From NCBI GenBank assembly GCA_025544715.1, contig GCA_025544715.1_4109.3: 64,000 nucleotides of DNA; one strand, 5' to 3'. The position numbers and the translations under genes are program-made. Of this stretch, positions 1 through 64,000 are shown piece by piece. How positions within the stretch are numbered: position 1 is the stretch's first letter; each line of letters opens with the position of its first letter. Under the pieces are notes generated by a model. It searched no databases, was not told where the DNA came from, and worked only from the letters and a program-made list of their open reading frames with translations. This DNA is from Escherichia coli. GTDB lineage: Bacteria; Pseudomonadota; Gammaproteobacteria; Enterobacterales; Enterobacteriaceae.

Positions 1-1
1 G

Positions 2-220
2 TTATTTTGAATTATACAAGCAGTACAGGTATACCAATGGAGTAAAATGTTCGGAATCTATTATATATATTAACTGAGTAACATATATTCCATATAGATC
101 TCGTGATTTATCTCTGTACATTAACAATGATTTATTTAAGTAAGGATCAACCCAGTACTTAATATCATTGTACTTCAACGTGTTGTTACGGTAACCTGAT
201 AGTTTTGAATTTTTATTCAA
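2..220 (-). CDS. hypothetical small protein (72 aa)
   Basis: Complete ORF with TAA stop at 2..4; C-terminal EHFxxLVxxYC motif shared with ORF 32687..32908. Confidence 0.4.
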   Translation of the reverse strand: MNKNSKLSGYRNNTLKYNDIKYWVDPYLNKSLLMYRDKSRDLYGIYVTQLIYIIDSEHFTPLVYLYCLYNSK

Positions 221-590
221 TTTTCTTACAATTACTCAGTAAGTGAATGATATCATCAGCAGTGAATGGTCCCAATACCAGAACTTCTTCACCATTACCG
301 AAAATGCTCAATGGTACTGATTGTTGACCAGCTAGATATTCAATTTGTTCCAGTTCGAAAATGTCATCAGCAGCATAAACTACCTGCTCCATTTCATTAT
401 CTTTAATCCATGACTGCCAATGTTCTTTAAACTTCTTAGCTTCGTATTCTTGAACATAGTTAGGTGATTCAGGGTTATATTGATGTAACATAGTCATCCC
501 AGCCATTACTAATTCTTTAGGGGATGGTGTAGAATCTTTCAGTACTACGATAGCTTGGATAGTTTTTACTTTAACGTCATTAGCAGCCAT
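213..590 (-). CDS. hypothetical protein (125 aa)
   Basis: ORF in same-strand operon; no motif recognised. Confidence 0.45.
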   Translation of the reverse strand: MAANDVKVKTIQAIVVLKDSTPSPKELVMAGMTMLHQYNPESPNYVQEYEAKKFKEHWQSWIKDNEMEQVVYAADDIFELEQIEYLAGQQSVPLSIFGNGEEVLVLGPFTADDIIHLLSNCKKIE

Positions 591-602
591 TATATACCTC
601 TA

Positions 603-920
603 TTATAGAATGATTTTATTCTCAGGAACGAAAACTTTTGGAGTGTTTTCGATTGCTTTAATAGCATCAACATAAGCATCAACTAATGCAGGGTTTGCAT
701 CACTAACACTAATAATGTTGGATTTATAAAAAATAACATTTTTCTCCATACTAACAAACTCTAGATAATCACGAAGAATGATTTCACCATTTTCGTCAGT
801 CCCTAGTTGTGCTGGGTAGTTAACTACAACAGCTTCAGCAGAATCGGTTTGAAGAACTGCTAGTACTGGGCCAATGTTATTGATGTTTAGTAGTTTAACG
901 GTCATAGTCATTTTTGTCAA
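603..920 (-). CDS. hypothetical protein (105 aa)
   Basis: ORF in operon context; no motif recognised. Confidence 0.45.
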   Translation of the reverse strand: MTKMTMTVKLLNINNIGPVLAVLQTDSAEAVVVNYPAQLGTDENGEIILRDYLEFVSMEKNVIFYKSNIISVSDANPALVDAYVDAIKAIENTPKVFVPENKIIL

Positions 921-930
921 GTCCTTTTGT

Positions 931-1407
931 TTATTTTAGAATATATAAGTGTTTTTCTGCATTGACCAGACGGTGATCAATGATTTCTTTGATAACGTTC
1001 CAGTTACCGCCGCCCAAATCGGCTCCAATTTTCGGGAAATGTACATGAACATCTCGATCAACTTTACAAAAATAATTTAGATGTTTGAACACATCGTCGA
1101 TTGCATCATAACTGACATATTTAGCACCGTCATTACCGTACATTTTTTGGGTAATACAGTTTGCAATAATCAAATTATCGTTAATTGCTGAATATGCAAT
1201 TTGTCCAATTCTAAGAAATCCCATTTCCTTTTCATATGCTTTATAATCATCATATGCCATTGGATAACGATTTCTTAGTTCTTTTGCAAAACCTGAACCC
1301 ATTTTACCCTGTGCGTTACAACCATGAGCAATTATATGTATTGCTGTTTTATCATCTGTTACAGTACTGAATAATTCAAACAGATTACCTCGGTGTTCAT
1401 GAATCAT
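931..1407 (-). CDS. macro-domain protein (ADP-ribose binding/processing)
   Basis: IIAHGCNAQGKMGSGFA and IGADLGGGNW resemble the two glycine-rich ADP-ribose-binding loops of macro domains. Confidence 0.55.
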   Translation of the reverse strand: MIHEHRGNLFELFSTVTDDKTAIHIIAHGCNAQGKMGSGFAKELRNRYPMAYDDYKAYEKEMGFLRIGQIAYSAINDNLIIANCITQKMYGNDGAKYVSYDAIDDVFKHLNYFCKVDRDVHVHFPKIGADLGGGNWNVIKEIIDHRLVNAEKHLYILK

Positions 1408-1425
1408 TATATTCTCCGAAAAGAA

Positions 1426-1449
1426 AGGACTCTGTGGTCAGAGTCCTTA
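1426..1449 (-). terminator. hairpin terminator after 1457..1714
   Basis: aggactctg/cagagtcct stem with T-run on the minus strand. Confidence 0.45.
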
Positions 1450-1456
1450 TTTTAAA

Positions 1457-1714
1457 TTATTCTTCTTCACCGAAACGGATTTTCTTTAATTCTTTTCGAT
1501 GCTTTCTAGCTATTGTACTTTTGTGAAGTCTATTACTGCGTTTTGTGTCTTTTGTAATGTACCATGAATCTTCTGGTGCATCATAATCACAAAATCCATC
1601 TTCCGTAATTGTTCCTAAAAATGCAGATTTTTTAGGAATATTAGTTTGAGCTTTAGCCTGAAATTGACCTTTTGCTAATTGTTCACGAAAACTGAGCATA
1701 ATAGTATCTCCCAA
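1457..1714 (-). CDS. hypothetical basic protein (85 aa)
   Basis: ORF; Lys/Arg-rich C-terminus. Confidence 0.45.
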   Translation of the reverse strand: MGDTIMLSFREQLAKGQFQAKAQTNIPKKSAFLGTITEDGFCDYDAPEDSWYITKDTKRSNRLHKSTIARKHRKELKKIRFGEEE

Positions 1715-1745
1715 ATTGTTAAGAAGAACTTTTTGTTCTTCACAT

Positions 1746-1997
1746 TTATTTAGGGTTGCCAGAAACCTTCACATATTTGATAAATGCCAAAATATCATCT
1801 TTACTAAAAGATTTTACAATAAATTCGACAGCGGAATCATACTGTTCTTGTTTAGATAGATATTCTTTCATCTTGTTAATTTTAATCTGGGCTTTTTCTT
1901 TAGCTATTGAAATATCAGGAATTTTGAACTCTACTCCCAACGTATCAGCTAGTTGTTTTGCACGAGATGATACTTTTTCAATATCCATTAGTTCCAA
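1746..1997 (-). CDS. hypothetical protein (83 aa)
   Basis: ORF in operon; chosen over overlapping plus-strand ORF 1756..2010. Confidence 0.4.
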   Translation of the reverse strand: MELMDIEKVSSRAKQLADTLGVEFKIPDISIAKEKAQIKINKMKEYLSKQEQYDSAVEFIVKSFSKDDILAFIKYVKVSGNPK

Positions 1998-2236
1998 CGA
2001 CCTTCTTTAAGACCTTCAATAAACCCAGTACAACCACCTGGTACATAAATGTCATTTACGAAAATTTGAGGAACTTGACGAACTGGTTCACCACAAATTT
2101 CAGACAGTTTTGAACCATCGATACCTTCAGCAACAATATCTACAAACTCCATTTCAAATTTATTTTGTTCACATACAGCTTTTGCAGTGTCGCAAAATTT
2201 ACAACCAGTCTTGCGACCATAAATTTTAACTTTCAT
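1988..2236 (-). CDS. nrdC: glutaredoxin / NrdC-like thioredoxin
   Basis: CKFC active-site CxxC near N-terminus, VPQIFV...GG motif, about 82 aa; resembles T4 NrdC. Confidence 0.7.
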   Translation of the reverse strand: MKVKIYGRKTGCKFCDTAKAVCEQNKFEMEFVDIVAEGIDGSKLSEICGEPVRQVPQIFVNDIYVPGGCTGFIEGLKEGRWN

Positions 2237-2237
2237 G

Positions 2238-2639
2238 TTATTTCCTTCTATTTCTTTGAAAAGCTTTAACAGCTTTAATAATACTGTTACACATTCGTTC
2301 AGTCAAATACTTTTGACATTCTCGTACATCAATGTACATGAACTTATCCAATTCTGGATGACTCTTACCATATCTATTAGTGTAAGTACTTTTACAAACT
2401 AATTCATCTGGTATTGGTTTGTCTTTGGCAGTATAAAAGAAAAGTACTAACCTTTTTCCCTTTCTATAGGATACATCACCAAGAAACAGAAGATCATCTT
2501 CATCGATTTCGTATCCTGTCTCTTCGAAACATTCACGTACAGCAGCTTCTTTGAAAGTTTCATTACCCTCAGCTTTCCCTTTAGGTAAATCCCAATGATT
2601 CTGTCCGTGTTGTATGTCCGATAAGTATCTGACCATCAC
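2238..2639 (-). CDS. Nudix hydrolase (short N-terminus)
   Basis: Nudix box GKAEGNETFKEAAVRECFEETGYEI; track start is GTG with ATG one codon downstream; only about 14 residues precede the box. Confidence 0.65.
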   Translation of the reverse strand: MMVRYLSDIQHGQNHWDLPKGKAEGNETFKEAAVRECFEETGYEIDEDDLLFLGDVSYRKGKRLVLFFYTAKDKPIPDELVCKSTYTNRYGKSHPELDKFMYIDVRECQKYLTERMCNSIIKAVKAFQRNRRK

Positions 2640-2746
2640 GATAAAATATTATACCACAACTATAACGCATATCTTATCTCTTTGTCATCAATCGATGTTC
2701 AGATACTAATAATTATATCAGTTATTGGTTTTTTGTCCCACTATTT

Positions 2747-3859
2747 TTAGAACATTTGTTTGATTGCTTCGTAACGAAGTTCACAAACAAAATCACGAAT
2801 TTCTGACGTTTCAAGTTCACCATCTTTAACCATTTGCTGAATATCAGGTAATTCAACATCAGTATAACGATCATAAACTTTAATAATTAGATCTTCAAGT
2901 TCTAAATCAATTTCTTTTCGCAAAATGAAGTATTCCAAAACTTTATAAAGGAATTCTTCACCTCCGTTATTTTTAATATTCATATCCAATAAAATATTAC
3001 CCATTTCAATTGGGGTCTTTTTACGGAATGTTTTGATATCATCACGGAAACGTTTGATATAATTACTAAATTTAACATACTTAACTGGAACTTTAATAGC
3101 ACCGTTAAGTACTGAATCATTATTTACTTCTTCATTTTCTAGAAGAATAGACCACAGAAAATATGGTTTATATACATCAGTACAGTTATCTGAAATATAA
3201 TCAATAAGGTCTAAATTCTTTTTGGTCAAAGATGTATTAAACACCTTTTCGTAATAACCAAATTTACTTAGCGTCTTAAGGAACTTTGAAGGCTTTTCTT
3301 CAGAAAATGCTTTTTCGAATTCCACAAAAACACGGTCAGGAACAAGATGATTTAGCTCACCACTATTGACCATTCCAATAGCGAGTTCCTCAGTGCTTTC
3401 ATGAATAGTAAAGTCTGAATAACGAGTAGCAAATCGAGCAAGACGTAACACGCGTAATGGATCTTCTTTAAAATGGTCAGAAACATGACGTAGTACCTTG
3501 TTCTTGATATCAGCTTTACCACCGTATGGATCGATGTGAATTTGTAGTACTGGATCATACGCAATTGCATTAATTGTAAGGTCACGGCGATACAAATCTT
3601 GTTCTAGTGTTACGCCTTTTGTATCCACTTCAAAGCCACCATATCCAGTACCAGTTTTACGCTCAGTACGGGCTAATGCGTGTTCATTACCTTCTGGACT
3701 TAGATATACTGGGAAATCCTTACCTACTTGCTTATAGCCAATACTTTGCAAGTACTTAAGATCAGATTCGGATGCACCAACAATGACATAATCTTTGTCT
3801 TTTGCACGAAGACCCATTAAACGGTCACGGACGTAACCGCCAACCAAATACTTTTTCAT
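2747..3859 (-). CDS. cca: CCA-adding tRNA nucleotidyltransferase
   Basis: N-terminal GGYVRDRLMG...DKDYVIVG head-domain motif of class II tRNA nucleotidyltransferases; 370 aa. Confidence 0.75.
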   Translation of the reverse strand: MKKYLVGGYVRDRLMGLRAKDKDYVIVGASESDLKYLQSIGYKQVGKDFPVYLSPEGNEHALARTERKTGTGYGGFEVDTKGVTLEQDLYRRDLTINAIAYDPVLQIHIDPYGGKADIKNKVLRHVSDHFKEDPLRVLRLARFATRYSDFTIHESTEELAIGMVNSGELNHLVPDRVFVEFEKAFSEEKPSKFLKTLSKFGYYEKVFNTSLTKKNLDLIDYISDNCTDVYKPYFLWSILLENEEVNNDSVLNGAIKVPVKYVKFSNYIKRFRDDIKTFRKKTPIEMGNILLDMNIKNNGGEEFLYKVLEYFILRKEIDLELEDLIIKVYDRYTDVELPDIQQMVKDGELETSEIRDFVCELRYEAIKQMF

Positions 3860-3860
3860 G

Positions 3861-3983
3861 TTATTCCCCCATCAACCAATCACGTAGACGTTCCCAGAAG
3901 CCTTTTGGTTGGTATTCTGGGTATTCATATTCATCAGTGCCTTGCTCGGAAACACCCCAATCTTCTTCTAGCATAGCAATCAT
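3861..3983 (-). CDS. small acidic protein (40 aa), not in ORF track
   Basis: ATG preceded by GGAGG 5 nt upstream; MIAMLEEDWGVSEQGTDEYEYPEYQPKGFWERLRDWLMGE; fills the gap between flanking genes. Confidence 0.4.
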   Translation of the reverse strand: MIAMLEEDWGVSEQGTDEYEYPEYQPKGFWERLRDWLMGE

Positions 3984-3994
3984 AATGCCTCCAA

Positions 3995-4417
3995 TTAAAT
4001 TAATCTGTCACGTAGACGGTCGTAATATTTTTTGTGTATAGCTAGTATACACTGATATGCAGAATAGTCAATACCAAATGTATCATCAATGAACATGTAC
4101 TGATCAAGTGTTTCGGGTCCATTATCATCAACTGGTAATGTCCCTTCTTTTTTTGATAGTGTGTGCCACATCAACTCACTTTCAATATGGTGAGTTGCGT
4201 ATGTCAATTCTATCTTACTTTTTCGTAGTAAAATTAACAATTCATCATTGTCGTCGAGTGCATTACGAAATTTAATACGAACTGTACCCTGGAAATTATT
4301 AGTGTACATAACACGATGATGATTGTATGAAATCAAACCACGCCTTTCAGTACTGATTTCGTGTTCAGCAAAGTACTTTAACGTTTCATTAAATTTTGGA
4401 ATTTTAGTAACGTCCAA
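3995..4417 (-). CDS. hypothetical protein, tandem paralog A (140 aa)
   Basis: C-terminal FIDDTFGIDYSAYQ matches FIEDTFGIDFDTYQ of the adjacent ORF. Confidence 0.5.
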   Translation of the reverse strand: MDVTKIPKFNETLKYFAEHEISTERRGLISYNHHRVMYTNNFQGTVRIKFRNALDDNDELLILLRKSKIELTYATHHIESELMWHTLSKKEGTLPVDDNGPETLDQYMFIDDTFGIDYSAYQCILAIHKKYYDRLRDRLI

Positions 4418-10845: not shown

Positions 10846-11234
10846 TCTTCAATCTCCATAGAATTATCATCATCATAATCATCACTGGTGTACTTAGTTT
10901 TTACCTCAATACCATTCTCATGTAGGTATGTGATAAAACCATTACCATAAACGAATTGATTATAATATGTATTTTCTTCTACATGTGCATCATAATCATC
11001 TTCATAATATGTGGGTATTGTAACATCATGACCGACACTTTGCAAGTACTGGAACAATTCTTTCAGTACTACTTCGATATCACCTTCTTCTGTGCCATAA
11101 CAGTAAGCAGGTTCACCATGAGTGAATTTGAAACCTTTACAGGAAACTGTATAAATATCACTCATTTGTATACCACAATCATCACATTCATGTATAGAAC
11201 AATGCTGGTGGAATTTAATCTTTTTGATTTGCAT
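10842..11234 (-). CDS. hypothetical acidic protein (130 aa)
   Basis: ORF. Confidence 0.45.
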   Translation of the reverse strand: MQIKKIKFHQHCSIHECDDCGIQMSDIYTVSCKGFKFTHGEPAYCYGTEEGDIEVVLKELFQYLQSVGHDVTIPTYYEDDYDAHVEENTYYNQFVYGNGFITYLHENGIEVKTKYTSDDYDDDNSMEIED

Positions 11235-13886: not shown

Positions 13887-14243
13887 TTACAAATATTTCC
13901 ACAAAGTTCGATAAGTGATAATTTCTTCTCTGGTAACAGAAACTTCATTGCACTTAACACCGTCAGTTTCAGTACTGAATGGTTGTACTAGTCTATCTTC
14001 TGTTAAACCTCGTTCATAAGTACAATGATAAAACTTATTTGTGCTCATGTCAAGAAATACGAGATCAAATTCTTCAGTCCACCTTCTGTGTCCTTTGCTT
14101 TCATTGCAGATGATTTTATATTTTACATCTGGTTTAAAAGTTTCAGTACTGTCATCCCATGCACCATAGTCAGTATATTCATCATCTTCATCTAACTCTG
14201 CTAGATGCCACATTAATTGTGGTAAAAAGATTTTAGATTTCAT
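13887..14243 (-). CDS. hypothetical protein (118 aa)
   Basis: ORF with GGAG RBS after terminator. Confidence 0.45.
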   Translation of the reverse strand: MKSKIFLPQLMWHLAELDEDDEYTDYGAWDDSTETFKPDVKYKIICNESKGHRRWTEEFDLVFLDMSTNKFYHCTYERGLTEDRLVQPFSTETDGVKCNEVSVTREEIITYRTLWKYL

Positions 14244-29050: not shown

Positions 29051-29521
29051 TTAAAAATCTTTATTTTTATATAGTATTCTTTGATTATTTGAACCACGGA
29101 AAGGTAATTTTAAATTCTTTTCGGACTCGATAAACTTACCATCAACTAATACATCTAAGTACTGAAGTATATCTTTAGAATGATTTTTCATAATCTCATC
29201 TAAAGTATACCCACTCCAGCACCAAATAGTTTTACTAGGATAAGTTTCTTTAACTACTTTGCATAGATTTAAAACTTCATCTATATTCTTTTTCATTAAT
29301 GGATCGCCGCCTAGAAGTGATAAACCACTAACATATGGTTTTTTTAGTTCCTGTAGTATAATCTCAACTGTTTCAGTACTGAACTCTTGACCACTTCTGT
29401 AGTCCCATGCTTCTTCATTGAAGCAACCATCACATCCGTGCGAACACCCACTAACAAATAAAGAGCAGCGAACACCCTCTCCATTTACTAAATCATCCTT
29501 GATTATCGTCTGGTAATTCAT
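29051..29521 (-). CDS. nrdG: anaerobic ribonucleotide reductase activating protein
   Basis: Radical-SAM-like CSHGCDGC cluster; 156 aa; close to T4 NrdG in length and N-terminus. Confidence 0.85.
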   Translation of the reverse strand: MNYQTIIKDDLVNGEGVRCSLFVSGCSHGCDGCFNEEAWDYRSGQEFSTETVEIILQELKKPYVSGLSLLGGDPLMKKNIDEVLNLCKVVKETYPSKTIWCWSGYTLDEIMKNHSKDILQYLDVLVDGKFIESEKNLKLPFRGSNNQRILYKNKDF

Positions 29522-29833: not shown

Positions 29834-31639
29834 TTATTTGTGCTGAATACGCTCACAACACTCTTGTTGTTTGCCTTTATTGAATCCACGCGAAGAAGGA
29901 TTACCCAAGTAACCAGAAACACGACGAATCACTGAGATTGTCTTCTCATTACGATTATCACATACCGGACAGTGGAAACCATGTTTATCTACACTGAACT
30001 CACCCTGGAAGCCACATTCATAACAATGGTCAACGGGTTGGTTAATACCAAAATATGGTATCTTCGTGTAAGCATAGTTAACTAATGTTTCAAGTGCTTG
30101 AATGTTGTTTGCTAAGTTTGGAGATTCAACATAACTGATGTTTCCACCGTTACTTAGGTAAGCAAAGCCTTCTTCATAACTCCATTTATCAAATGGAGAA
30201 CTTTCTACCCATACTGGTTGATGAAAGGAATTTGTGATGTAATCACGTTTTAGTACTGACGGATATTTTGCTTCAATACAACGTGCAAATTTATAACAAA
30301 GTGACTCTGCTGGAGTTCCATATAGACTAAAAGCTATATTACTCTCTTTTTTGAACTCATCACATTTTACTTTCATATAATTCAGTACTGACATACAAAA
30401 CTCCTTACTGATAGAACCAGTGAGGATTTCTGAACATTCAACAAGTCCAACATAACCAATACTAATACTAGCATAACCATTGTAAAATAGCTTGTCAATG
30501 GTTTCTTCTGCACCTAAACGTGCTAATGCACCTTCCATGAACAAAATTGGATTTTGCTTTGCTTTAGTGCCTTTTAAACGCTCTACGCGGTTCATCTGAG
30601 CACGATATGCAATATTCATATGCTCGTCTATCTTATCAAAAAACTCTCCGTCAGAAGCACTCTCAAGAGCAATTAGAGGTAAATTGATAGAAACCACACC
30701 TAAATTGAAACGACCGTTGTATTGTTCATTTCCATTAGAATCTTCCCATTTTCCTAAGAATGAACGACAGCCCATCGGTGTTACCGCAGTACTACTACTT
30801 CCAGTCACTTTGTGATTTAATGGTACGGAAACAAAGTCAGGGTAGATTCGTTTTGATGCACAACGCATAGCTAACTGTTTAAGGTCATAATTACTATCAT
30901 TGGTATTCATGTTTATACCATCTTGTAAAAAGAAAATTACTTTAGGAAACACTGGAGTAATCTTATCTTTACCTAAACCATTCTCATGAACTTTTAAGTA
31001 CTGTTCAGTGATTAATTTACCAAATTTAGAAGTGTTAAGACCTAAACTAAGAGAAATAAATGCAGCTTGACCATTAGTACTAATCATTGAATTAGTTTGG
31101 TAAAGTAATGTTTGGCAGCCATCGTATACTTCTTTTCGTAGTTCTTCTTCAATGAATTCATCACTTAGATTATATTTCTTTTGTTTTTCTAACAGCTTAT
31201 CCCATGACTTTTGAACGTAAGGTTCTAATCCGACATCAATGTGAGCCAAAGATTGACCACCATACTGGGAACTGGCAACAGCTTGGACAATTTGTGTCAG
31301 TACTGTACATGCTACACTAAAACTCTTTGGTTCTTCAATTTTAGCACAACCAATGGTGAATCCATTTTTTAGCATATCTGGGTAGTTAACTAAGCAACAG
31401 TTGGTTAATGGGCTGATATAGTAGTCTAAATCATGGATATGACCATAACCATCATTATGCCACTGCATTAGCTCATTTGGAATAACATCTTGTGAATAAT
31501 GCTTAGATAGGATACCTGCAAGTAAATCCCTGTGTGTATTGACGCATTTCGCATCTTTGTTCGCATTTTCGTTTGTAAGATCAGTATTGCTCTGATTGAG
31601 GAAATTCGTTACGTCAGTATATAATTTATCTAATTGCAT
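29834..31639 (-). CDS. nrdD: anaerobic ribonucleoside-triphosphate reductase (class III)
   Basis: Alignable along its length to T4 NrdD, including LTNENANKD, NCCLV, the C-terminal zinc ribbon CYECG...CPVCD and glycyl-radical tail RVSGYLG; start set to ATG with AAGGAA RBS (track 31702). Confidence 0.9.
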   Translation of the reverse strand: MQLDKLYTDVTNFLNQSNTDLTNENANKDAKCVNTHRDLLAGILSKHYSQDVIPNELMQWHNDGYGHIHDLDYYISPLTNCCLVNYPDMLKNGFTIGCAKIEEPKSFSVACTVLTQIVQAVASSQYGGQSLAHIDVGLEPYVQKSWDKLLEKQKKYNLSDEFIEEELRKEVYDGCQTLLYQTNSMISTNGQAAFISLSLGLNTSKFGKLITEQYLKVHENGLGKDKITPVFPKVIFFLQDGINMNTNDSNYDLKQLAMRCASKRIYPDFVSVPLNHKVTGSSSTAVTPMGCRSFLGKWEDSNGNEQYNGRFNLGVVSINLPLIALESASDGEFFDKIDEHMNIAYRAQMNRVERLKGTKAKQNPILFMEGALARLGAEETIDKLFYNGYASISIGYVGLVECSEILTGSISKEFCMSVLNYMKVKCDEFKKESNIAFSLYGTPAESLCYKFARCIEAKYPSVLKRDYITNSFHQPVWVESSPFDKWSYEEGFAYLSNGGNISYVESPNLANNIQALETLVNYAYTKIPYFGINQPVDHCYECGFQGEFSVDKHGFHCPVCDNRNEKTISVIRRVSGYLGNPSSRGFNKGKQQECCERIQHK

Positions 31640-31774
31640 TGTACATTCCTTGTATTTTGAAATCATCTGGGGGTGAAGATATTTAATATCACCAGACAAC
31701 ATTATAGCGTCAGAACAGGTTATTTCTCTTGACCTATATCAAGGAAAAGTCACATTGGTTTTTATTTGCACAAA

Positions 31775-33273: not shown

Positions 33274-33896
33274 AAGTCTAAGTCTATACCTTTTTCAATA
33301 GATTTCTCTAGAACCCAAAGTTTACATTCTTCACTCTCCAAATGTATCTTTGCCTCTTTCTGTTGTTCTATTGTACAAGACTTTATGAATTCACGCAAGG
33401 CTTCTATCGTATTTTTTAAATTTTTTATATCATCGATAATTTTTTCTTTGGTTTCTTCATCGATTACACATGAACTCCAACTGTGTCGTTCCTCCCAAAC
33501 AGTTTTAGTAGGATTATAAATTGATGGAGTAGATTTGAATGCATGGATCTTATTAAAGGTATCGTCCGCTTCTTGTTGGGTGTAATCACCATATGTTCTT
33601 AGCACATTTTTGTATAATTCATCAATGGCCTCTTCATACGTATCACCACCACAATCCAATTGATAATCATGTGCTTGTACCCATTCGTCGTCTTGCTCAA
33701 TATACATTGGTGAAAGAAATTCTACCCAAAATTGATTCTTTGTATTCAATGCTTTGAAATCTTCAATTCGATTTGTCATTGGACACACATCATGAGGTTC
33801 AATATCAATCCTAGCTGGAACCATATCTTTGTTTATGAATTTAGGATGACCCAAAATCCACCAGTACTTTTCCGATGTAGTCATAATAATCTCCAA
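33270..33896 (-). CDS. hypothetical protein (208 aa)
   Basis: ORF. Confidence 0.45.
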   Translation of the reverse strand: MEIIMTTSEKYWWILGHPKFINKDMVPARIDIEPHDVCPMTNRIEDFKALNTKNQFWVEFLSPMYIEQDDEWVQAHDYQLDCGGDTYEEAIDELYKNVLRTYGDYTQQEADDTFNKIHAFKSTPSIYNPTKTVWEERHSWSSCVIDEETKEKIIDDIKNLKNTIEALREFIKSCTIEQQKEAKIHLESEECKLWVLEKSIEKGIDLDL

Positions 33897-33930
33897 TTAA
33901 AAAGTACTGCCCGTGATGGCAGTACTGATG

Positions 33931-41496: not shown

Positions 41497-42105
41497 TTAT
41501 TGGTTTACTGATCCATATCGGATTAGTTCAGTTTTTGTCAAGATAACAACATCTTCACCACGAGAACGGCTAACTTTATATAGAACGTCTGGTGGAATTC
41601 CATTTGCAGAATATAGTGTAAATAGAAAACCTACTTTAGTTGCCATTTCTTCAGTAAAAGTTGATAGCTGCCTAACTGATACAAAAGAATTATCACCGTC
41701 TTTAACATTACTTTTAATAGAAATGTTATGAAGTCCCAGTACTGAGCGATTTATCATGTATCGCTTTTCAAAAGCTACACTAAAGAATACCACAGTACAT
41801 GCTGAGTTGCAATACCTAGAAACAATTAAATTTATACCATTGTCTCTAACGAAGTTTGCCATTTTAATTCCAGCATCAAAATCACCACCTGGTGATGTGA
41901 TTGTAATGGTATCATAGTGTTCTTTATCATACAACTCCATCATACGCTTGAGTGATCCATCTGTAATATCTGAGATGAAATATACATTACGTGTTTCTGG
42001 ATTGTACTTTATCACATTTTTACGTTCAACACCAGCACTGGCTGGAAAATTTATCAACATCAGAAGCATTACTGCTTGTACTACCTCAAGCCATAGTCTT
42101 TTCAT
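41497..42105 (-). CDS. secreted ClpP/S49-fold serine-peptidase-like protein
   Basis: Signal peptide MKRLWLEVVQAVMLLMLINFPASAG; ITSPGGDFDAGIKMANF resembles the ClpP/SppA SPGG serine motif; AAGGA RBS. Confidence 0.45.
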   Translation of the reverse strand: MKRLWLEVVQAVMLLMLINFPASAGVERKNVIKYNPETRNVYFISDITDGSLKRMMELYDKEHYDTITITSPGGDFDAGIKMANFVRDNGINLIVSRYCNSACTVVFFSVAFEKRYMINRSVLGLHNISIKSNVKDGDNSFVSVRQLSTFTEEMATKVGFLFTLYSANGIPPDVLYKVSRSRGEDVVILTKTELIRYGSVNQ

Positions 42106-42141: not shown

Positions 42142-42287
42142 ATATAGTACTTAAACACTTAAGTCAAACTTTTTCTGTACTTAACTCAAATTTCCCTCAT
42201 CAGATAATCCCCTTAGTACAATCACTGTGAAGATTCTATCACAAACCCATACCAAATGTAAAGCTTTTTTTATAAGGAGTGCCCTTC

Positions 42288-44213
42288 ATGGGAAAACCAA
42301 TTGCAGGACAAGACCAATTTCCATTCACTATAGGTGGATATTTAGTTGATGGTGCAAACATAAAAGGTACAACATATGTAAAATCGTTGTACATCTACAA
42401 ACAGCGTTCCTCTGATTTGTATGATTTAATGGATTCAAATGGAACAATATATCGTTTTATTCGTATTGTTGGATATGGTCAAGATGGTAACAGATTAAAT
42501 TATTTTACACCAGCAGAAGAAATTGTACCAAATCTGGCGACCAATACATTTTTTATAAAAGTTCAAGATGCTGAAAGAAATATATTTTCATTTGTTAGAT
42601 TGTACCAATTAAATAAAATAATAACATTCGATGGTGATTATATTTTTAGAAAAATAGATAAAGATCGTTATCTAAGTGGTGTGTTAATTCAACCATCATT
42701 AACTACATTACAAGTTGGTAAAACCAGTTCACTGCATTGTGTATTCTACCCTAATGATTACTATGATACTGATGGAACTTGGTACATAAACGACCATTCT
42801 GATATAAATCCAGAAATACCTAGTAAGTATGCTAAAATCATAGAATATAATAAAAATGAAGTATCTATTGAAGGAACATCGGTGGGTATGTCAATACTTT
42901 CATTTGTTCCTAAAAATAATAAATCCATAATTTCACATTCTCTTATTAACATTGTTAATGAAAATGTAGATATAGAATACATGGTTGCCGAAAGAAGTTC
43001 TCCATTTTTTAATCATTATATTGGCAATGAATGGACTATTCAAATAGTCACATATCCGTATGACGCGACTATACAATACCCTCTTGAAATCGTAATCGAT
43101 GCGGAAGTAGATCCTTATATGAAAATTGCCACTACCGAGTTAGTTGGAGTCTCTGAAAATAATAAAATATATACATTTAAATCAACACTTGAGCCAGATT
43201 TAGAATATTATATAGATTATTATCCACAAATCACCTTCACTATGAATGAACCTTACAAATTTAGTGCATTGTTTGAAAATAAAATTTGTTTGTCTGGTTG
43301 GGAAAGATATTGTGAAAAAATTACCAGTCCTGGAAAGTTATTTTCTATTGATGAATATGTACGTCCAAACACGACTAAAACATTAAAATATTGGTTAATG
43401 AATGATTATGACCAACATATGTATCCAATACGTTCAACTGATGATGAAATTGCCACAATTGATGTAACAACTGGTATATTGAGAACTTACGATAAAAGAG
43501 GAACAGTATCTTTCTATACAAATTATACTGATATAACTACTGGGGCCATTAGTCAAGATGAATATTTAGTTGGGAAACTAACCGTTACAGACGATGTGTA
43601 CGATTTAATCGAGGTAGAACCATCAAATATACAATATATGTTCCCAAATCAATCACAACAATTCACGTTAACTGGTTATAGAGAAGGTTATCCAAATACA
43701 TCTTTTAATGTTAATGTAAGTATGTTGAACAATTATGCAACTTCTTCAAACAATATCGTCACTATTAACGAAAATACATCTAATAACTCTAGATTTAAGA
43801 TAGTATCAGATTTCAATGGTAATTATAAAAACTTTAGTAGTATATATTCTAATCAAACACCATCTATTATAGTAAAAACAAATCCAAATGATTTAACTCC
43901 AATACAAAGTATTGATGTTTCTGAAAATGAAATTTTATCTATAAGAATGGCTGAAGAAAATGAAATAGATGATTATAAAGTTAGTTTTTATCCAAAACCA
44001 AATTATTGTGTTAATTATGAACTTGAAATTGTATCATATGATAATACTATAATTGAAATATATGATAAAGAAAATGCATTAAAAAACGGGCTAAATTATT
44101 ATGGTAATATTATGTTATACATAACACCAAAAAGTCCTGGAAGTACCGAGATTGTTGTTAGATCTGTTCATTACCCAGATGTACAACAATCTGTAAAAGT
44201 AGTTGTTTATTAA
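42288..44213 (+). CDS. virion-surface-type protein with bacterial Ig-like (Big_2-like) repeats
   Basis: ATG with AAGGAG RBS (track gives GTG at 42279); segments such as IQPSLTTLQVGKTSSLHCVFYPND and the C-terminal block fit Big_2-like patterns; N-terminal 110 aa duplicated in next gene. Confidence 0.5.
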   Translation: MGKPIAGQDQFPFTIGGYLVDGANIKGTTYVKSLYIYKQRSSDLYDLMDSNGTIYRFIRIVGYGQDGNRLNYFTPAEEIVPNLATNTFFIKVQDAERNIFSFVRLYQLNKIITFDGDYIFRKIDKDRYLSGVLIQPSLTTLQVGKTSSLHCVFYPNDYYDTDGTWYINDHSDINPEIPSKYAKIIEYNKNEVSIEGTSVGMSILSFVPKNNKSIISHSLINIVNENVDIEYMVAERSSPFFNHYIGNEWTIQIVTYPYDATIQYPLEIVIDAEVDPYMKIATTELVGVSENNKIYTFKSTLEPDLEYYIDYYPQITFTMNEPYKFSALFENKICLSGWERYCEKITSPGKLFSIDEYVRPNTTKTLKYWLMNDYDQHMYPIRSTDDEIATIDVTTGILRTYDKRGTVSFYTNYTDITTGAISQDEYLVGKLTVTDDVYDLIEVEPSNIQYMFPNQSQQFTLTGYREGYPNTSFNVNVSMLNNYATSSNNIVTINENTSNNSRFKIVSDFNGNYKNFSSIYSNQTPSIIVKTNPNDLTPIQSIDVSENEILSIRMAEENEIDDYKVSFYPKPNYCVNYELEIVSYDNTIIEIYDKENALKNGLNYYGNIMLYITPKSPGSTEIVVRSVHYPDVQQSVKVVVY

Positions 44214-44229
44214 TAAGAGGAAATAAAAT

Positions 44230-44607
44230 ATGAAAGCTATAGCAGCACAAGGTAAATTACCATTCAATATCGGCGGCTTTTGTGTAACCGCAGCTAATAT
44301 AAACGGTGAATTGAAATATAACTTGAACATCTTTAATCAACGTTCTAGTTGTGTTTACGATCTTATCGACACTGATTTTAATGTTTATCGTTTTGTAACT
44401 ATAACAAGTTTTGATAAAGATAAAATCAGATTAGACGCATCTAAAACTGCACTAGAGATTGCACCAACTTTAGCAAAAAATACTTTTTGTATTAAGATTG
44501 ATGATAGTGCATTTGCCGAATCATTCCAGTTTCATAAAATTAAATTGAGTACTGGAGAAATGAAATATCACCCTTGGGATTTGTATTATTGTAACATCCC
44601 TGGTTAA
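44230..44607 (+). CDS. standalone paralog of the N-terminal domain of 42288..44213 (125 aa)
   Basis: Shares G.LPF.IGG..V..ANI.G...Y, QRSS.vYDLiD, YRFV.I, NTFcIK; AAGAGGAAA RBS. Confidence 0.5.
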   Translation: MKAIAAQGKLPFNIGGFCVTAANINGELKYNLNIFNQRSSCVYDLIDTDFNVYRFVTITSFDKDKIRLDASKTALEIAPTLAKNTFCIKIDDSAFAESFQFHKIKLSTGEMKYHPWDLYYCNIPG

Positions 44608-46456: not shown

Positions 46457-46485
46457 TAAAAAGAGGAATCCAGTACTGGATTCCT
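46457..46485 (-). terminator. rho-independent terminator
   Basis: aggaatcc/ggattcct stem with AGTACT as the loop, T-run on minus strand. Confidence 0.5.
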
Positions 46486-59108: not shown

Positions 59109-59117
59109 ATGAACTCC

Positions 59118-59375: not shown

Positions 59376-59402
59376 TTCTCCTTGTGCTTAGGCTAGATAG
59401 TA

Positions 59403-60545
59403 CTAAAAATCCTTTAGTACAATTTTCATGTATTTTATAAGAGTCTCTTTGTAATCAACTTTCTTATTGTTATACATTGCAAAGGCCAAGCCCTGACGAT
59501 TCAGTTCATTAGTTAAACACTCCTGAACCTTCATTGCGAATTCCTTTCGCTCCAAGTGCTTGTGTTCCTTGACGAAGCTTTCTACTTCATCTTGTAATGC
59601 ATTATAGCACGAAAATACCAATTGTTCCATTCTTAATATCTTTTGCATAGCATATTCATCAGTACTGAACAATTGTTTTAAATCATCACTTGAACCATTT
59701 AATACGGCTTCATATAAATGAGAATCAATAATAATACTATCTTTTGTAAGATGTAATGAACTGTACCAGTCAGTCTTTATTTTACACATTGTTCCATTAT
59801 TTAGGATGCACACAAAACCCTCAATATCAAGCATTTTATGAACTTCCTCCACGCTTTCACGGAAGGTATTTCGTACCGGAAAAGTGTGATGAATATCTTT
59901 TCCTGTCATATTAGTACTGTACTGTGCAAGACATGGAAACTTATCACGTAGTGCTTTACCACATAGCAACTCACCACTCACACGATGTCGAACGTTCAGT
60001 ACAAACAGTTGTTCTACCTGATATGGTAATACAATTCGGTACTCTGGGCTTGTATACTCCATATTAACTGTGTAACCTAAACGTTCCGCTTCGTCGATGT
60101 ACTGATACAAATTCTGGTTCTCGTTAATAAGTCGAGTACTGTTAATCGCATGGTCAGAATACAATGCAGTATGTGATTTACAACGAATCTCACCATCATT
60201 ATCACGATAAGTACTGATGATCGAACCATCCAACTTAGGCATAACTACCGCAATGTCATCGCATGTGGTGTTAGCAGGGAACATTGTAGCAGGATTCTCG
60301 TAAGCATTAAAGAACTTTTTCATTGTACGTGCTGCACAACGTATCATGTCACCTTCTTCATCAATTTCCCACATAGAGCCACGGGTTTCCAACGCATTTG
60401 GTTGCATGAAATCAGTGTATGATGCTAGACGATAACTGAATACACGATACGTACCACCAGCAGGACTTTTATGATCCACATAAAAGAACGCATCGTTTGT
60501 ATTACATAAGTGCATTAAATCTTCATATATTTGCAAAAGGGTCAT
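59403..60545 (-). CDS. rnlA: RNA ligase 1
   Basis: Adenylation motif KLDGS and N-terminal similarity to T4 RnlA (GGTYRVFSY, ETRG, KFFN). Confidence 0.85.
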   Translation of the reverse strand: MTLLQIYEDLMHLCNTNDAFFYVDHKSPAGGTYRVFSYRLASYTDFMQPNALETRGSMWEIDEEGDMIRCAARTMKKFFNAYENPATMFPANTTCDDIAVVMPKLDGSIISTYRDNDGEIRCKSHTALYSDHAINSTRLINENQNLYQYIDEAERLGYTVNMEYTSPEYRIVLPYQVEQLFVLNVRHRVSGELLCGKALRDKFPCLAQYSTNMTGKDIHHTFPVRNTFRESVEEVHKMLDIEGFVCILNNGTMCKIKTDWYSSLHLTKDSIIIDSHLYEAVLNGSSDDLKQLFSTDEYAMQKILRMEQLVFSCYNALQDEVESFVKEHKHLERKEFAMKVQECLTNELNRQGLAFAMYNNKKVDYKETLIKYMKIVLKDF

Positions 60546-60805
60546 TTTATTACCTCTATGTCTATATCAGTTCCATAATATGATATTAATCCATCATCTG
60601 ATTCACACTGAATAGACAACTCAGATTCATAATATGTTACTTTATTCACTGTTAGTACTTGTTCTTCAATTTTTCCAGAAAAATAATTCATCTCACGTAC
60701 ACGAACTTTAGTTCCTTTAGGGAGTTCTTCAGAGATTTTTCGAACAAGTTCATAAGCAGCCTGTTCAAGTGTGTACAGTAATTGTAATCTATCTTGGATA
60801 TTCAT
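60542..60805 (-). CDS. small protein, LIGxxV family member
   Basis: LPKGTKVRVRE motif; start re-assigned to ATG (MNIQDRL) with RBS (track 60850). Confidence 0.4.
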   Translation of the reverse strand: MNIQDRLQLLYTLEQAAYELVRKISEELPKGTKVRVREMNYFSGKIEEQVLTVNKVTYYESELSIQCESDDGLISYYGTDIDIEVIK

Positions 60806-60806
60806 A

Positions 60807-61496
60807 TTATTTCCACCAACTGGTATCACGTCCATTAGACAAAGATTCATTGTACTGTCGTCTGAAATTTGTTTCAGGGTTATTATTCATTGTACTAATG
60901 AAATTAAATTTAGTAACTTCTTGGATATATCTAATAACACTATCTTTAAATTTAATAGTACTGAAATCTAAATCCAAATGTTCATAAGATACTGGATGAC
61001 AAAACTCATGTGTACGCAACGATGGCATGGTATCCTTAATGTATTGCACAGTGTTAATCATTGCATTGTATTCCGGCATAGCACGCATCATCATTAGCTG
61101 AAAGTGTTCTTCCTCTGACATTGACTCATCCAAATCAATAACGACTTCATCATTTTTAGAGTCATAAACTTTAATGGTACTCTTGGTTGGATCAAGCATA
61201 GCCCACTCTGGATACAGGCATGTTTTCCAAAAAGGATTATTGCACTGAAACATACTAATGAGATTTTGATCTTTATCAAAAATAGCAAATCCAAGATCCG
61301 AACTTGGTTGTACTTCACATACACAAATATCGTAAGACGAGTCTTCAGTACTGAGTGAACCAACTACATTTGATATATGTGAATATGGAGTTTCTCTTGA
61401 CTCCAACTGAAATGTACTTTCAATTCGATTGATTTGTGGATGTAATGTAATTACACCCCTTAGTACATATAAAATTCTATCTAAATCTTTAATCAA
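60807..61496 (-). CDS. hypothetical protein (229 aa)
   Basis: ORF. Confidence 0.45.
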   Translation of the reverse strand: MIKDLDRILYVLRGVITLHPQINRIESTFQLESRETPYSHISNVVGSLSTEDSSYDICVCEVQPSSDLGFAIFDKDQNLISMFQCNNPFWKTCLYPEWAMLDPTKSTIKVYDSKNDEVVIDLDESMSEEEHFQLMMMRAMPEYNAMINTVQYIKDTMPSLRTHEFCHPVSYEHLDLDFSTIKFKDSVIRYIQEVTKFNFISTMNNNPETNFRRQYNESLSNGRDTSWWK

Positions 61497-62071
61497 AATT
61501 CTATCCCCGTATCAGTTAATTTCGTTCCGTCCATGTACTTAACAGTTATTTCAATGCGTCGATCAGTACTCAATTTTTGAAGATCATTGTAGTACAATTT
61601 AAATTCTTCAAAGAACTCAAGTGGTGGAATATCGTATAAAGTACTAATCTGGAAGTGCTCAGGTAATCCAAATTCCAATATATCAATCTTAGGCATAAGT
61701 CCATCGGCTGCTGCACCTTCTGGAGTACTGCTATCTGCTACATAAAACATAGAATTACCATGACGCTGGATAACGAATATGCAATCATCTTCACTTACAT
61801 AAATCATATTTCCAAGGTATGGATCGTTATCACACCAATTATCATGGACGAGTTGTTCAACTTGAAGTAAATCTTTTATAATTCCCTGACCACTATCGTC
61901 AACTAGAATATGTAAACCAGAACAATCTTTGCTCAACCAGCGGTATCTTGCATCACATCCTGATTCCATAAATGGATATTTTGAAAAATCCATATCAGTA
62001 CCATTATAAAACCAATCGTACCACTCATTACGCATACTAATCAGCTTAGTACTTAATTCTAATACATTCAT
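61493..62071 (-). CDS. hypothetical protein (192 aa)
   Basis: ORF. Confidence 0.45.
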   Translation of the reverse strand: MNVLELSTKLISMRNEWYDWFYNGTDMDFSKYPFMESGCDARYRWLSKDCSGLHILVDDSGQGIIKDLLQVEQLVHDNWCDNDPYLGNMIYVSEDDCIFVIQRHGNSMFYVADSSTPEGAAADGLMPKIDILEFGLPEHFQISTLYDIPPLEFFEEFKLYYNDLQKLSTDRRIEITVKYMDGTKLTDTGIEF

Positions 62072-62078
62072 TTTAGTT

Positions 62079-62381
62079 TTATCCTCTTAATTTAATAGTA
62101 CTGGCTGGATATTCTACCAAAGTATTATCTGGTAATCCTATACAGTAATAAGGGAAATACCCCATCTTTATATTAATACCAATTAAAATTCCTGTTTTAT
62201 ATGAAGTATTAATTCCATAGTAATCGTCTATATCAACAGCAAGTCCATATAATGATATGTTACAATCCTTGATATATCGGTCAAACATTTTATACATTGC
62301 AGAATATAAAGTTCCATTGGATTGTCTCACCAAATCTGCCAACATTTTGATAGTACTGTTAATTAAATCTATACTGAACAT
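62079..62381 (-). CDS. hypothetical protein (100 aa)
   Basis: ORF. Confidence 0.45.
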   Translation of the reverse strand: MFSIDLINSTIKMLADLVRQSNGTLYSAMYKMFDRYIKDCNISLYGLAVDIDDYYGINTSYKTGILIGINIKMGYFPYYCIGLPDNTLVEYPASTIKLRG

Positions 62382-62393
62382 CTTTGTACCTGC

Positions 62394-62418
62394 GAAAAAA
62401 GACCAGCAAACGCTGGCC
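62394..62418 (-). terminator. rho-independent terminator
   Basis: ccagc/gctgg core stem followed by T6 on minus strand. Confidence 0.45.
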
Positions 62419-62425
62419 TAAAAAT

Positions 62426-62707
62426 TTAAATTATTTCATAAAGACAATATACACCATCAACGCCAGCATCAGGAAAATCAACATAGAAATTCACACTAAC
62501 AGTGTCGTAATCTATATCAGTGATTCGTCCGGTTTTACCTACACTTTTTACAAATATATCAGTACCAAGATACACGAACTCAAATTCGTCCGCATACTCT
62601 TTTATGATATCTGCGAACCAACAACCACACCTAGGTTCTGTGTTAATAATTTCAAGATATAATGTAATATATTGTTCGTATGTCCATGTGTGTAGATAAA
62701 AATCCAT
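62426..62707 (-). CDS. hypothetical protein (93 aa)
   Basis: ORF; chosen over antisense ORF 62384..62662. Confidence 0.45.
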   Translation of the reverse strand: MDFYLHTWTYEQYITLYLEIINTEPRCGCWFADIIKEYADEFEFVYLGTDIFVKSVGKTGRITDIDYDTVSVNFYVDFPDAGVDGVYCLYEII

Positions 62708-62717
62708 AGCAGTTTCC

Positions 62718-63452
62718 TTAGAAATATATCATACCCATCAATTCAGAATCGTCGGGGCGAGTATAACCTTGCTTCTTAACTTTAAAATAGAATGATTCAT
62801 GCTCTTCTAAATTATAACGTTTTTTCAAGCAACGAGTATATGTCTGGCAGTTCGGTGAAACCCATTCATAGATATGAACACCATCTTCATTATAACCATT
62901 AACACTACAACGATTACCTTCATGTTTCATGTAATTTTTACTTTTTTCAGTAAATTCACGAGAATATGCAGTACTTGGTGCTTTGTATTCAAAAGGAACT
63001 TCAGTCATACGAAAATAAAAGTATTCTTCGTCTTCATCATAACCCAAGAGCACAGTGTTAGTTTCACGTACATTGTAATGATTCTTACTTTTTAATTCAT
63101 TTTCATATATATCGTTAAGAACTTCAGCAAATACAATCTCAGGTGCAGCATCTGGATCTGACACACCACTAATTCTTCTTTCAATGATAAAATCTGTGAA
63201 TTTACGGTCTTCGACTATATCTTCGTTCATATAAAGACTAACAAACTTATCCTTATATGTCTTGACACTATATTGCTTACTTTGCACTTCACTATAAACG
63301 TCAGCTAACAAGTTTTCTTGTCCACATTGAACACCACTTACAGAGTAAGCACATGCATGTTCAGCCATTACTGATGTTAACATTTGAAAATTAGCAATAT
63401 TTAGTTGGTTTGCCATTTCGGTAGCAAATTTAATGTTATCTATCATTTTCAC
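62718..63452 (-). CDS. hypothetical protein (244 aa)
   Basis: ORF. Confidence 0.45.
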   Translation of the reverse strand: MKMIDNIKFATEMANQLNIANFQMLTSVMAEHACAYSVSGVQCGQENLLADVYSEVQSKQYSVKTYKDKFVSLYMNEDIVEDRKFTDFIIERRISGVSDPDAAPEIVFAEVLNDIYENELKSKNHYNVRETNTVLLGYDEDEEYFYFRMTEVPFEYKAPSTAYSREFTEKSKNYMKHEGNRCSVNGYNEDGVHIYEWVSPNCQTYTRCLKKRYNLEEHESFYFKVKKQGYTRPDDSELMGMIYF

Positions 63453-63473
63453 ATTCCTTGTGTTTATGATTTT

Positions 63474-63938
63474 TTAAACTTTTATTTTTTTCTCTAGTAG
63501 ACATAAACATATATAGTCAATTACAATACCAATGTCCTCAACATCAAATGTTTCAGTATACCCATCACCAAAAATCCTTTTTGGTAATTTACTGCTATTT
63601 TTTAATAAACTTATAATGTTATATTCTATATTTTTCACAACTTCGGTATTACCAGTAAAATAATATAATTCATCAACTATAAAATTAGTTTTCGATCTAA
63701 TACTTATTATTCTAGTTTGATCAAACCTTGTTGATATACCAACTTTATATTTTATTAATATATTATCTTCATAAATTCCAATAATGTATAATTTACATTC
63801 ATTCGGAACTTCTCGTACACAATTACAATTTAGAACTCCACACTTAACTCTACTATACGGTACATATTTGTTGAAGTTACATTCAGTACAGAAAAAACGA
63901 GCCGGTTGTTGTGTACCCTTGTATGATGTTTTATCCAT
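63474..63938 (-). CDS. zinc-ribbon + T5orf172/GIY-YIG-like domain protein
   Basis: N-terminal CTEC...C..C.C then LYIIGIYEDNILIKYKVGISTRFDQTRI, resembling the GIY...KIGxT...R pattern. Confidence 0.4.
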   Translation of the reverse strand: MDKTSYKGTQQPARFFCTECNFNKYVPYSRVKCGVLNCNCVREVPNECKLYIIGIYEDNILIKYKVGISTRFDQTRIISIRSKTNFIVDELYYFTGNTEVVKNIEYNIISLLKNSSKLPKRIFGDGYTETFDVEDIGIVIDYICLCLLEKKIKV

Positions 63939-64000
63939 ATGTAATGTATTGGAATACTCTCGAATTTTCTCGGTTATCGAAGAATAAGCCTCATCAATAG

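Follow-up and report, generated by a model that had tools for sequence, protein, structure and literature searches.

The 64,000-nucleotide stretch analyzed here (the window; contig GCA_025544715.1_4109.3 of an assembly assigned to Escherichia coli) raises the question of why a short palindrome, AGTACT, is written into it over and over again. The window shares 95-97% identity with the Asteriusvirus jumbo coliphages E9.1, JP4, 121Q, PBECO4, and phAPEC6 and, as judged from this similarity, it is DNA of an Asteriusvirus jumbo coliphage (121Q/PBECO4 group). A previous inspection of the letters alone, referred to here as the sequence-only reading, estimated about 130 copies of AGTACT, roughly 6-fold over expectation. 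The exact count is 154, or one per 415 bp, while the mononucleotide composition (33.3% GC) predicts 21.5, an enrichment of 7.2- to 7.3-fold. These counts confirmed that the iteration is real and stronger than first estimated. We propose, with a probability of about 0.4, that AGTACT is the preferred site of a homodimeric DNA-binding protein, encoded by the phages of this clade, that labels phage DNA and regulates early promoters.

The sequence-only reading had suggested counting words against nulls that preserve codons. The set used for these shuffles comprised 110 non-overlapping open reading frames (ORFs), 104 of them on the minus strand, which cover 93% of the window. Shuffling synonymous codons inside genes left 49.8±5.1 copies of AGTACT (z=20), and shuffling the order of codons left 32.5±4.7 (z=26). 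Codon-aware nulls gave z values of 11-21 at seven loci of the clade and no enrichment in T4 or MIJ3. The ranking of over-represented hexamers in the window is headed by AGTACT, CAGTAC, and GTACTG, and AGTACT is the only 6-bp palindrome that is strongly over-represented, CATATG being second at 2.0x. The extended palindrome CAGTACTG occurs 35 times when about 0.6 copies are expected (5.4±1.4 in the synonymous shuffle, z=21), a count that falls within the 35-40 copies read initially. However, the treatment of the extended palindrome as a unit was not borne out. C is found at position -1 in 74 copies and G at position +1 in 74, and the product of the two frequencies (74 x 74 / 154 = 35.6) accounts for the CAGTACTG copies observed. 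Therefore, CAGTACTG needs no explanation of its own; a distinct 8-mer unit was rejected because the two flank preferences are independent and weak outside Asteriusvirus. The longer words listed in the sequence-only reading were all found exactly where it placed them: besides the copy in Table 1, TTCAGTACTGAA is present at 29372, 34338, and 50092, one of the 10 copies of TCAGTACTGA is at 4347, and one of the four copies of CCAGTACTGG is at 46470.

The symmetry of the word extends to its flanks. C accounts for 48% of the bases at -1 and G for 48% of those at +1, the rarest being G at -1 and C at +1, and in pooled Asteriusvirus sequence the symmetric preference is present in frames 0 and 2 as well as in spacers. 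This preference is graded and not the same in all genera, as is typical of proteins that bind DNA and not of restriction-modification enzymes. Variants altered on one side are found at 1.1-2.3x versus 7.3x for the full palindrome (TGTACT/AGTACA at 2.3x, GGTACT/AGTACC at 1.7x), and a half-site read on single-stranded DNA by a primase-type enzyme was rejected on the basis of this difference. Eight of the nine classes of one-letter neighbours are at 0.88-2.26x, AGGACT being the exception at 0.54x; the transition products AATACT/AGTATT are at 1.06x and AGTGCT/AGCACT at 1.6x. An origin by double CpG deamination, from GCGC to GTAC, was rejected because only about five AGCGCT are expected per 64 kb and AGTGCT/AGCACT are at 1.6x.

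The great majority of the copies (143 of 154) are located in ORFs, where they are evenly distributed along the gene length and occupy the three frames 64, 29, and 50 times. The other 11 are intergenic, close to the number that the 7% non-coding share of the window predicts. Codon choice is biased accordingly: AGT-ACT writes 64 of the 119 Ser-Thr dipeptides (16.9 expected from codon usage) and GTA-CTN writes 70 of the 160 Val-Leu dipeptides (27.3 expected). The frame, strand, and spacing statistics proposed in the sequence-only reading showed, in addition to copies in all frames, similar densities in genes of the majority and minority strands (2.3 vs. 1.9 per kb) and an exponential (Poisson) spacing, with a pooled coefficient of variation of 1.09 over 963 sites and only a small bump near 20 bp. 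A single site in the window, that at 46472, pairs beyond three extra base pairs. As proposed, this copy lies in a terminator loop: it is the centre of AGGAATCCAGTACTGGATTCCT, which together with its T-run is an intrinsic-terminator hairpin. Neither a peptide nor an RNA motif nor a repeat element fits copies that are found in all frames, with symmetric flanks, Poisson spacing, and few hairpins. A peptide motif was rejected because of the use of all frames and the codon bias at Ser-Thr and Val-Leu, phased or regular spacing because of the coefficient of variation, long palindromes or hairpins because only one site is extended, and a dependence on strand or direction of transcription because of the similar densities. 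AGTACT is not an oriented word of the type of Chi or the FtsK orienting polar sequences (KOPS), being a perfect palindrome of similar density on both gene strands. The selection is for the density of a symmetric word on double-stranded DNA and not on protein. The sequence-only reading had arrived at selection on DNA from a copy in nrdD that encodes T-V-L. The encoding is correct, and the coordinate given, near 31263, was approximate, the copy being at 31299. The identity of nrdD (Pfam NRDD, E = 1.5e-166) is also supported by annotated relatives, and its six copies (Table 1), taken in the order of their coordinates, are in frames 2, 2, 0, 1, 0, and 2.

The comparison with related phages and with the host, also suggested at the outset, showed that the enrichment is limited to one clade. 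The 121Q genome (1-346 kb) has 899 copies of AGTACT (119 expected) and 194 of CAGTACTG. The enrichment is 7.4x in vB_Ec-M-J, 7.1x in RaK2 (Klebsiella), 6.8x in both GAP32 (Cronobacter) and CBB (Pectobacterium), 6.1x in Serratia phage BF, and 5.1x in a 366-kb metagenomic contig with 73% TerL identity. Nine metagenomic relatives with 43-45% TerL identity are at 0.5-1.9x, T4 is at 0.4x (GTAC at 0.39x), and MIJ3 (PA5oct-like, 34% GC) is at 0.1x. A 50-kb segment of E. coli K-12 contains three copies versus 4.6 expected from dinucleotide shuffles. AGTACT is thus enriched 5- to 10-fold in every genome of the RaK2/121Q/GAP32/CBB/BF clade examined and in none outside it. An equal enrichment in unrelated AT-rich genomes, the result that the sequence-only reading had named as counting against it, was not found, and the values for T4 and the AT-rich jumbo relative MIJ3 led to the rejection of generic AT-rich composition as the cause. 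In the literature, full-text searches on AGTACT, ScaI, and GCGC in these phages returned nothing relevant and no report of an iterated AGTACT. The enrichment is not mentioned in the genome papers on RaK2, CBB, phAPEC6, Sharanji, and fEgEco12 or in one comparative study of jumbo phages.

Alignment with relatives indicated how the sites are maintained. Of the 120 sites aligned with 121Q (96.6% identity), 114 are retained (95%) versus 84% of all hexamers; of the 104 aligned with vB_Ec-M-J (83% identity), 62 are retained (60%) versus 39% of all hexamers. In the latter comparison, the per-base identity is 0.84-0.93 inside the sites and about 0.85 in the flanks, and 42 sites were lost and 44 gained, for totals of 104 and 106. 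Where sites differ, the change is in most cases a single step that is synonymous or conservative (AGTTCT and AGTACA on the coding strand). Thus, single sites are weakly protected, and it is their density that is maintained. Two stretches are poor in AGTACT. The longest AGTACT-free stretch of the window (Table 1) spans an ORF of 644 amino acids located on the minority strand, with 28-30% GC and no Pfam match, that is absent from 121Q, where a small Ig-domain structural gene takes its place; this ORF probably encodes a variable structural or fibre protein. In 121Q, AGTACT is nearly missing from a 14-kb block at 155.5-169.4 kb, which holds about 45 tiny ORFs; the gaps there measure 4.1 and 7.6 kb. 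This block is mosaic and more divergent among Asteriusviruses, with 90-92% identity and patchy coverage. The coincidence of both stretches with mosaic or inserted DNA fits a slow accumulation of the word in resident DNA.

Such an accumulation could also take place with no function at all, if a mutation or repair bias specific to the clade, or a molecular drive such as biased gene conversion, built up the word with time of residence. The rapid turnover, with about 40% of the sites differing between genomes at 83% identity, and the lack of AGTACT in recently mosaic regions, as expected of slow amelioration, are consistent with this explanation. Very short patch (VSP)-type repair leads to over-representation of its product, as for CCWGG in E. 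coli. Nonetheless, repair of this type should deplete the neighbouring words, and only AGGACT is low (0.54x) while others reach up to about 2x; a VSP-like drive was rejected because the one-mismatch precursor words are not depleted. Substitution within the sites is also about half as frequent as in their flanks, and the symmetric flank preferences are present even in spacers. Taking into account, in addition, the two exact promoter registers found in two genera (see below), an origin without function is improbable.

The promoter registers, which the sequence-only reading overlooked, are a new finding in 121Q and RaK2. In 121Q, AGTACT is densest, with 65 copies per 10 kb, between 130 and 150 kb, a region of tiny early genes. 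A search with the sigma70-type pattern TTG[AC][CA][AT]-N16-18-TA[TAC]AAT identified 77 promoter-like sites on the coding strand of 121Q and 10 on the other strand, and 35 of the 77 include AGTACT. The word occupies two fixed positions, which account for 30 of the 77 sites. In the -35 register, AGTAC|TTGACA/TTGCAA, it is located at offset -5 from the -35 hexamer in 16 promoters; in the -10 register, CAGTACTG|TATAAT, it is located at offset -7 from the -10 hexamer, likewise in 16 promoters. About 0.2 copies are expected per register (our own arithmetic from the genome-wide density). The early region of RaK2 has 160 AGTACT in 34 kb, one per 212 bp, and AGTACT is present in 11 of its 16 promoter-like sites, five at offset -5 and seven at offset -7; one of them, agtacTTGACAattcgatccagtactgTATAAT, has both copies, 20 bp apart. 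In GAP32, three of 16 promoter-like sites have AGTACT, in the -35 register only. Among the copies of the window, only those at 11045 and 42146 are in promoter-like contexts. The conservation of the registers across genera shows that the reader of AGTACT, whatever it may be, encounters RNA polymerase at early promoters. In 121Q, a promoter-terminator cassette, gggTTGACTtcggtcagccctttttgcTATAAT, with a GC hairpin and a T-run inside the promoter spacer, is repeated at 109279, 110561, 112729, and 98698.

Promoters could also be the source of the word, as an element or by-product of sigma70 promoters that spread from strong early ones. This would agree with the fixed registers at -35 and -10 and with the fact that the density is highest in the early-promoter regions of 121Q and RaK2. 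However, 93% of the window copies are in ORFs, in all frames and away from any promoter context, only 30-35 of the 899 copies of 121Q are in promoter-like sites, and minority-strand genes have an equal density. We consider this origin very improbable.

The word statistics, the evolution of the sites, and the promoter registers are direct observations. A homodimeric binding protein specific to the clade fits them most simply because of the symmetry of the word, its graded and genus-specific flanks, the selection on density, the limits of the clade, the lack of the word in the host, and its fixed place in promoters. The proposed dimeric reader would be abundant, symmetric, and encoded by the clade, and it would prefer duplexes such as CAGTACTG, TTCAGTACTGAA, AAGTACTT, and AAAAGTACTTGACA over scrambled DNA. 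In many sigma70-type early promoters of two genera, the spacer is flanked by two copies separated by about 20 bp, and a reader bound there would overlap the -35 and -10 elements and would control or time transcription, most simply as a shut-off repressor. The approximately 850 intragenic copies would concentrate the reader on phage DNA with respect to the 13-fold larger host chromosome, which has about one AGTACT per 17 kb, and in this way it would mark or coat phage DNA without base hypermodification. Such a protein, if it exists, would reveal how a giant phage whose bases are ordinary labels its own DNA, about 350 kb in length, and sets the timing of its early genes.

Several points weigh against this proposal. 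Only 4-5% of the AGTACT copies are in promoters, the promoter copies are partly non-independent, with duplicated promoter cassettes inflating the counts, and the -35 register looks like the upstream region common to strong phage promoters such as T7 A1. Methylation could explain the promoter placement equally well, and the purpose of the ~850 intragenic sites is one that we infer. No reader protein was identified. The 25 of 49 Pfam families listed for the window ORFs, whose functions include nucleotide metabolism and RNA repair, comprise no DNA-binding or restriction-modification family. The only helix-turn-helix (HTH) protein annotated beside the GAP32 phage sigma factor has no 121Q homologue; this protein, GAP32_488, was rejected as the reader because it is absent from 121Q. 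Two 121Q proteins annotated as 'endonuclease', gp221 (L026 10900-12363) and gp604 (L028 40967-42064), have CapR-homology, treble-clef zinc-finger, and T5orf172 domains and are possible candidates for sequence-specific nucleases.

Alternatively, AGTACT could be the target of a phage DNA-modifying enzyme, an orphan methyltransferase or one that adds a bulkier group, with the epigenetic mark at -35 and -10 acting, for example, as a replication-linked timer of early promoters or as a self-label. This would be analogous to the reported link between HIP1 and a methyltransferase and to Dam-controlled phage promoters, and the promoter registers do fit methylation-sensitive promoters. Methyltransferases are encoded by the clade: 121Q has a DNMT3-like cytosine-5 (C5) enzyme (gp91) and a 173-amino acid Dam-family enzyme of PF05869 (gp417), and three methyltransferases in CBB and an extra N6-adenine enzyme in GAP32 have been described (PMC5259590). 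RaK2 DNA is resistant to most methylation-sensitive enzymes (PMC3622015), and an orphan methyltransferase of Mollivirus acts on AGTACT (PMC7253447). However, the C5 enzyme most likely acts on CpG, since it is DNMT3-like and bisulfite analysis of RaK2 showed methylated CpG (PMC3622015), and AGTACT lacks CpG; it is thus unlikely to be the reader. There is no excess of C-to-T decay (AGTATT/AATACT at 1.06x), the discrete recognition of restriction-modification-type enzymes does not predict graded flanks that differ between genera, and fEgEco12 DNA is cut as predicted by ClaI, NruI, and SmaI (PMC13070987). As for a restriction-modification target of the ScaI/Eco255I type, the site is enriched and the 25 of 49 Pfam families listed for the window ORFs include none of that kind. 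Two 121Q proteins considered as hidden methyltransferases, gp411 and gp415, have no Pfam or PDB match. Modification also gives no account of why more target sites would be better, and we regard it as an unlikely explanation.

The symmetry of the word would also suit an enzyme that cuts or nicks it, such as a T4-type topoisomerase II, a nickase, or a resolvase. The 4-base stagger of topoisomerase II would fit A|GTAC|T, and a high density of sites would direct the enzyme to phage DNA while this is replicated, decatenated, or debranched. The hexamer is palindromic with weaker symmetric outer positions, its density is selected with a Poisson placement, and the clade encodes topoisomerase II subunits, endonuclease VII, an SbcCD-like enzyme, and several HNH/GIY-YIG nucleases. 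Nevertheless, T4 has the same enzyme set yet avoids GTAC (0.39x), the fixed promoter registers are left unexplained, and gene conversion should erode the sites if they were recipients of double-strand breaks. In addition, no sequence evidence links any of these enzymes to AGTACT. A cleavage site is therefore distinctly unlikely. As for the roles listed in the sequence-only reading, a modification site, a nicking site, and a protein-binding site still stand, but a packaging or recombination signal is without support.

A host protein was considered as well. The site of the nucleoid-occlusion protein SlmA, GTGAGTACTCAC, has AGTACT as its 6-bp core (PMC3020112), and all known hosts of these phages are Enterobacterales, which carry SlmA. 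The phage could hijack SlmA to block division or could act as a decoy for it. However, SlmA requires G1, T2, A4, and G5 of its site (PMC3020112), and only one site of the window is within one mismatch of GTRAGYRCTYAC. Next to the core, 48% of the copies have C and 6% have G, a preference contrary to that of the SlmA site. The window copies do not follow the 12-bp GTGAGTACTCAC, SlmA sites were rejected, and a role for this protein is scarcely credible.

A second word, GCGC, is missing from the same genomes. It is absent from the window (about 48 expected) and from 121Q (346 kb, 292 expected), and there is none in any RaK2, GAP32, CBB, BF, or vB_Ec-M-J locus examined, while GCGT (0.96x), GCGG (0.81x), and ACGT (0.97x) occur about as often as expected. 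In 50 kb of E. coli there are 342 GCGC, about one every 150 bp, and T4 and MIJ3 have normal numbers. The absence of GCGC and the enrichment of AGTACT have identical phylogenetic limits. Over 246 kb of 121Q, another 25 hexamers are missing or almost so: 22 do not occur and three have 1-2 copies, versus 22-44 expected. They are mostly palindromic type II sites (BamHI, PstI, KpnI, XhoI, SalI, SacI, NcoI, PvuII, SphI, NheI, StuI), and the type IIS sites GGTCTC (BsaI), GAGGAG (BseRI), and GGCGGA (EciI) are purged too; GGCC, CCGG, and CGCG are at 0.36-0.41x. The absence of GCGC could be the consequence of a phage-encoded GCGC nuclease or of an extreme avoidance of restriction-modification. A broader idea is that the clade tells unmodified self from host by two words, AGTACT as a positive tag and GCGC as a negative one. 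The ~900 copies of AGTACT would be read by a dimeric phage protein that also gates early promoters, a phage-encoded nuclease could shred the host chromosome at GCGC with the phage DNA unharmed, and the code would replace base hypermodification. We find this two-word code rather unlikely.

The coordinates of the features of the window are collected in Table 1.

Table 1. Features of the window related to AGTACT.
Feature	Coordinates	Strand	Remarks
TTCAGTACTGAA, one of four identical 12-mers	13968..13979		11 nt upstream of a minus-strand start codon
AGTACT overlapping a -35-like TTGCAA	11045..11050	-	AGTAC|TTGCAA-N17-TACAAT; conserved in 121Q and vB_Ec-M-J
AGTACT in a promoter-like spacer	42146..42151	-	TTGACT-N10-AGTACT-ATATTAT; 41 nt upstream of the gene starting at 42105
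nrdD with six AGTACT	29834..31702	-	Copies at 30252, 30384, 30788, 30997, 31076, 31299
Two AGTACT 18 bp apart in a spacer	33903..33926	-	Upstream of the gene starting at 33896
22-bp perfect palindrome AGGAATCCAGTACTGGATTCCT	46464..46485	-	Centred on AGTACT (46472), followed by a minus-strand T-run
Longest AGTACT-free stretch, 2.4 kb	42152..44547	+	Spans the 644-aa ORF 42279-44213

Other observations concern codons and neighbouring words or genes. In the window, 34% of the Ser codons are AGT, more than any other, in part through the AGTACT motif. AGY codons are normally read by a GCU anticodon; unusually, 121Q has at 75464-75555 a tRNA-Ser with the anticodon ACT, the exact complement of AGT, and it also has a tRNA-Thr(TGT). 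Chi (GCTGGTGG) is found 2 + 2 times in the window and 12 versus 2 times in the 121Q orientation (L001, L005, L022, L007). Composition predicts about 0.1-0.2 per 64 kb, far fewer than these numbers, which may be a codon effect (CTG GTG G). The region of 121Q at 117-131 kb carries on the minority strand about 15 paralogous RCC1-repeat genes, whose 'DNA condensation' label comes from the repeat family only.

Why iterated palindromes arise has been an open question since the description of the highly iterated palindrome HIP1. The AGTACT phenomenon is large, clean, and conserved, even if its reader and function are inferred. The phages that carry it are tractable experimentally, with a small genome, E. 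coli as the host, and a site that can be cut by ScaI. The density of AGTACT together with the absence of GCGC identifies the clade in metagenomes, and the purge of common restriction sites bears on the host range and the engineering of these phages, which are candidates for therapy.

The resemblance to HIP1 (GCGATCGC, cyanobacteria) that the sequence-only reading pointed out holds at the statistical level. Both are short palindromes with hundreds of copies in coding and non-coding DNA and in all frames, and AGTACT, like HIP1, is over-represented with respect to nulls, dispersed genome-wide, and kept at orthologous positions above background (95% vs. 84% and 60% vs. 39%). An association of HIP1 with a cognate DNA methyltransferase has been proposed. 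The likeness does not extend to the host, since the HIP1 word of phages is iterated in the host genome and AGTACT is not (three copies in E. coli vs. 4.6 expected). Unlike HIP1, AGTACT is a 6-bp AT-rich word of a virulent phage clade, and it is also found in fixed promoter registers. The uptake signal and DNA uptake sequences (USS/DUS) and Chi share with AGTACT the character of self words that are selected for density, much more frequent in self than in foreign DNA, tolerated in genes, and continuously turned over, but they are asymmetric and read on a single strand by known machines, while AGTACT is palindromic. The sites of SlmA (GTGAGTACTCAC) and Noc resemble it as chromosome-wide dispersed sites for a dimeric protein, with an AGTACT-core palindrome; SlmA, however, has 24-52 sites per 4.6 Mb versus about 900 AGTACT per 0.35 Mb, and the essential outer G/T are absent in the phage. 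The ScaI/Eco255I site is identical to AGTACT with the sign reversed, as this word is enriched 7- to 10-fold while GCGC and 25+ hexamers are purged. The closest functional parallel to the proposed reader would be TF1 of phage SPO1, an HU-like phage protein that recognises DNA containing hydroxymethyluracil and whose preferred sites on the phage genome include early promoters. An HU-like or other reader protein was not found in the clade. TF1 is, as the reader would be, an abundant protein that separates phage from host DNA and represses early promoters; in the AGTACT phages, the discriminator would be the density of a word instead of hydroxymethyluracil.

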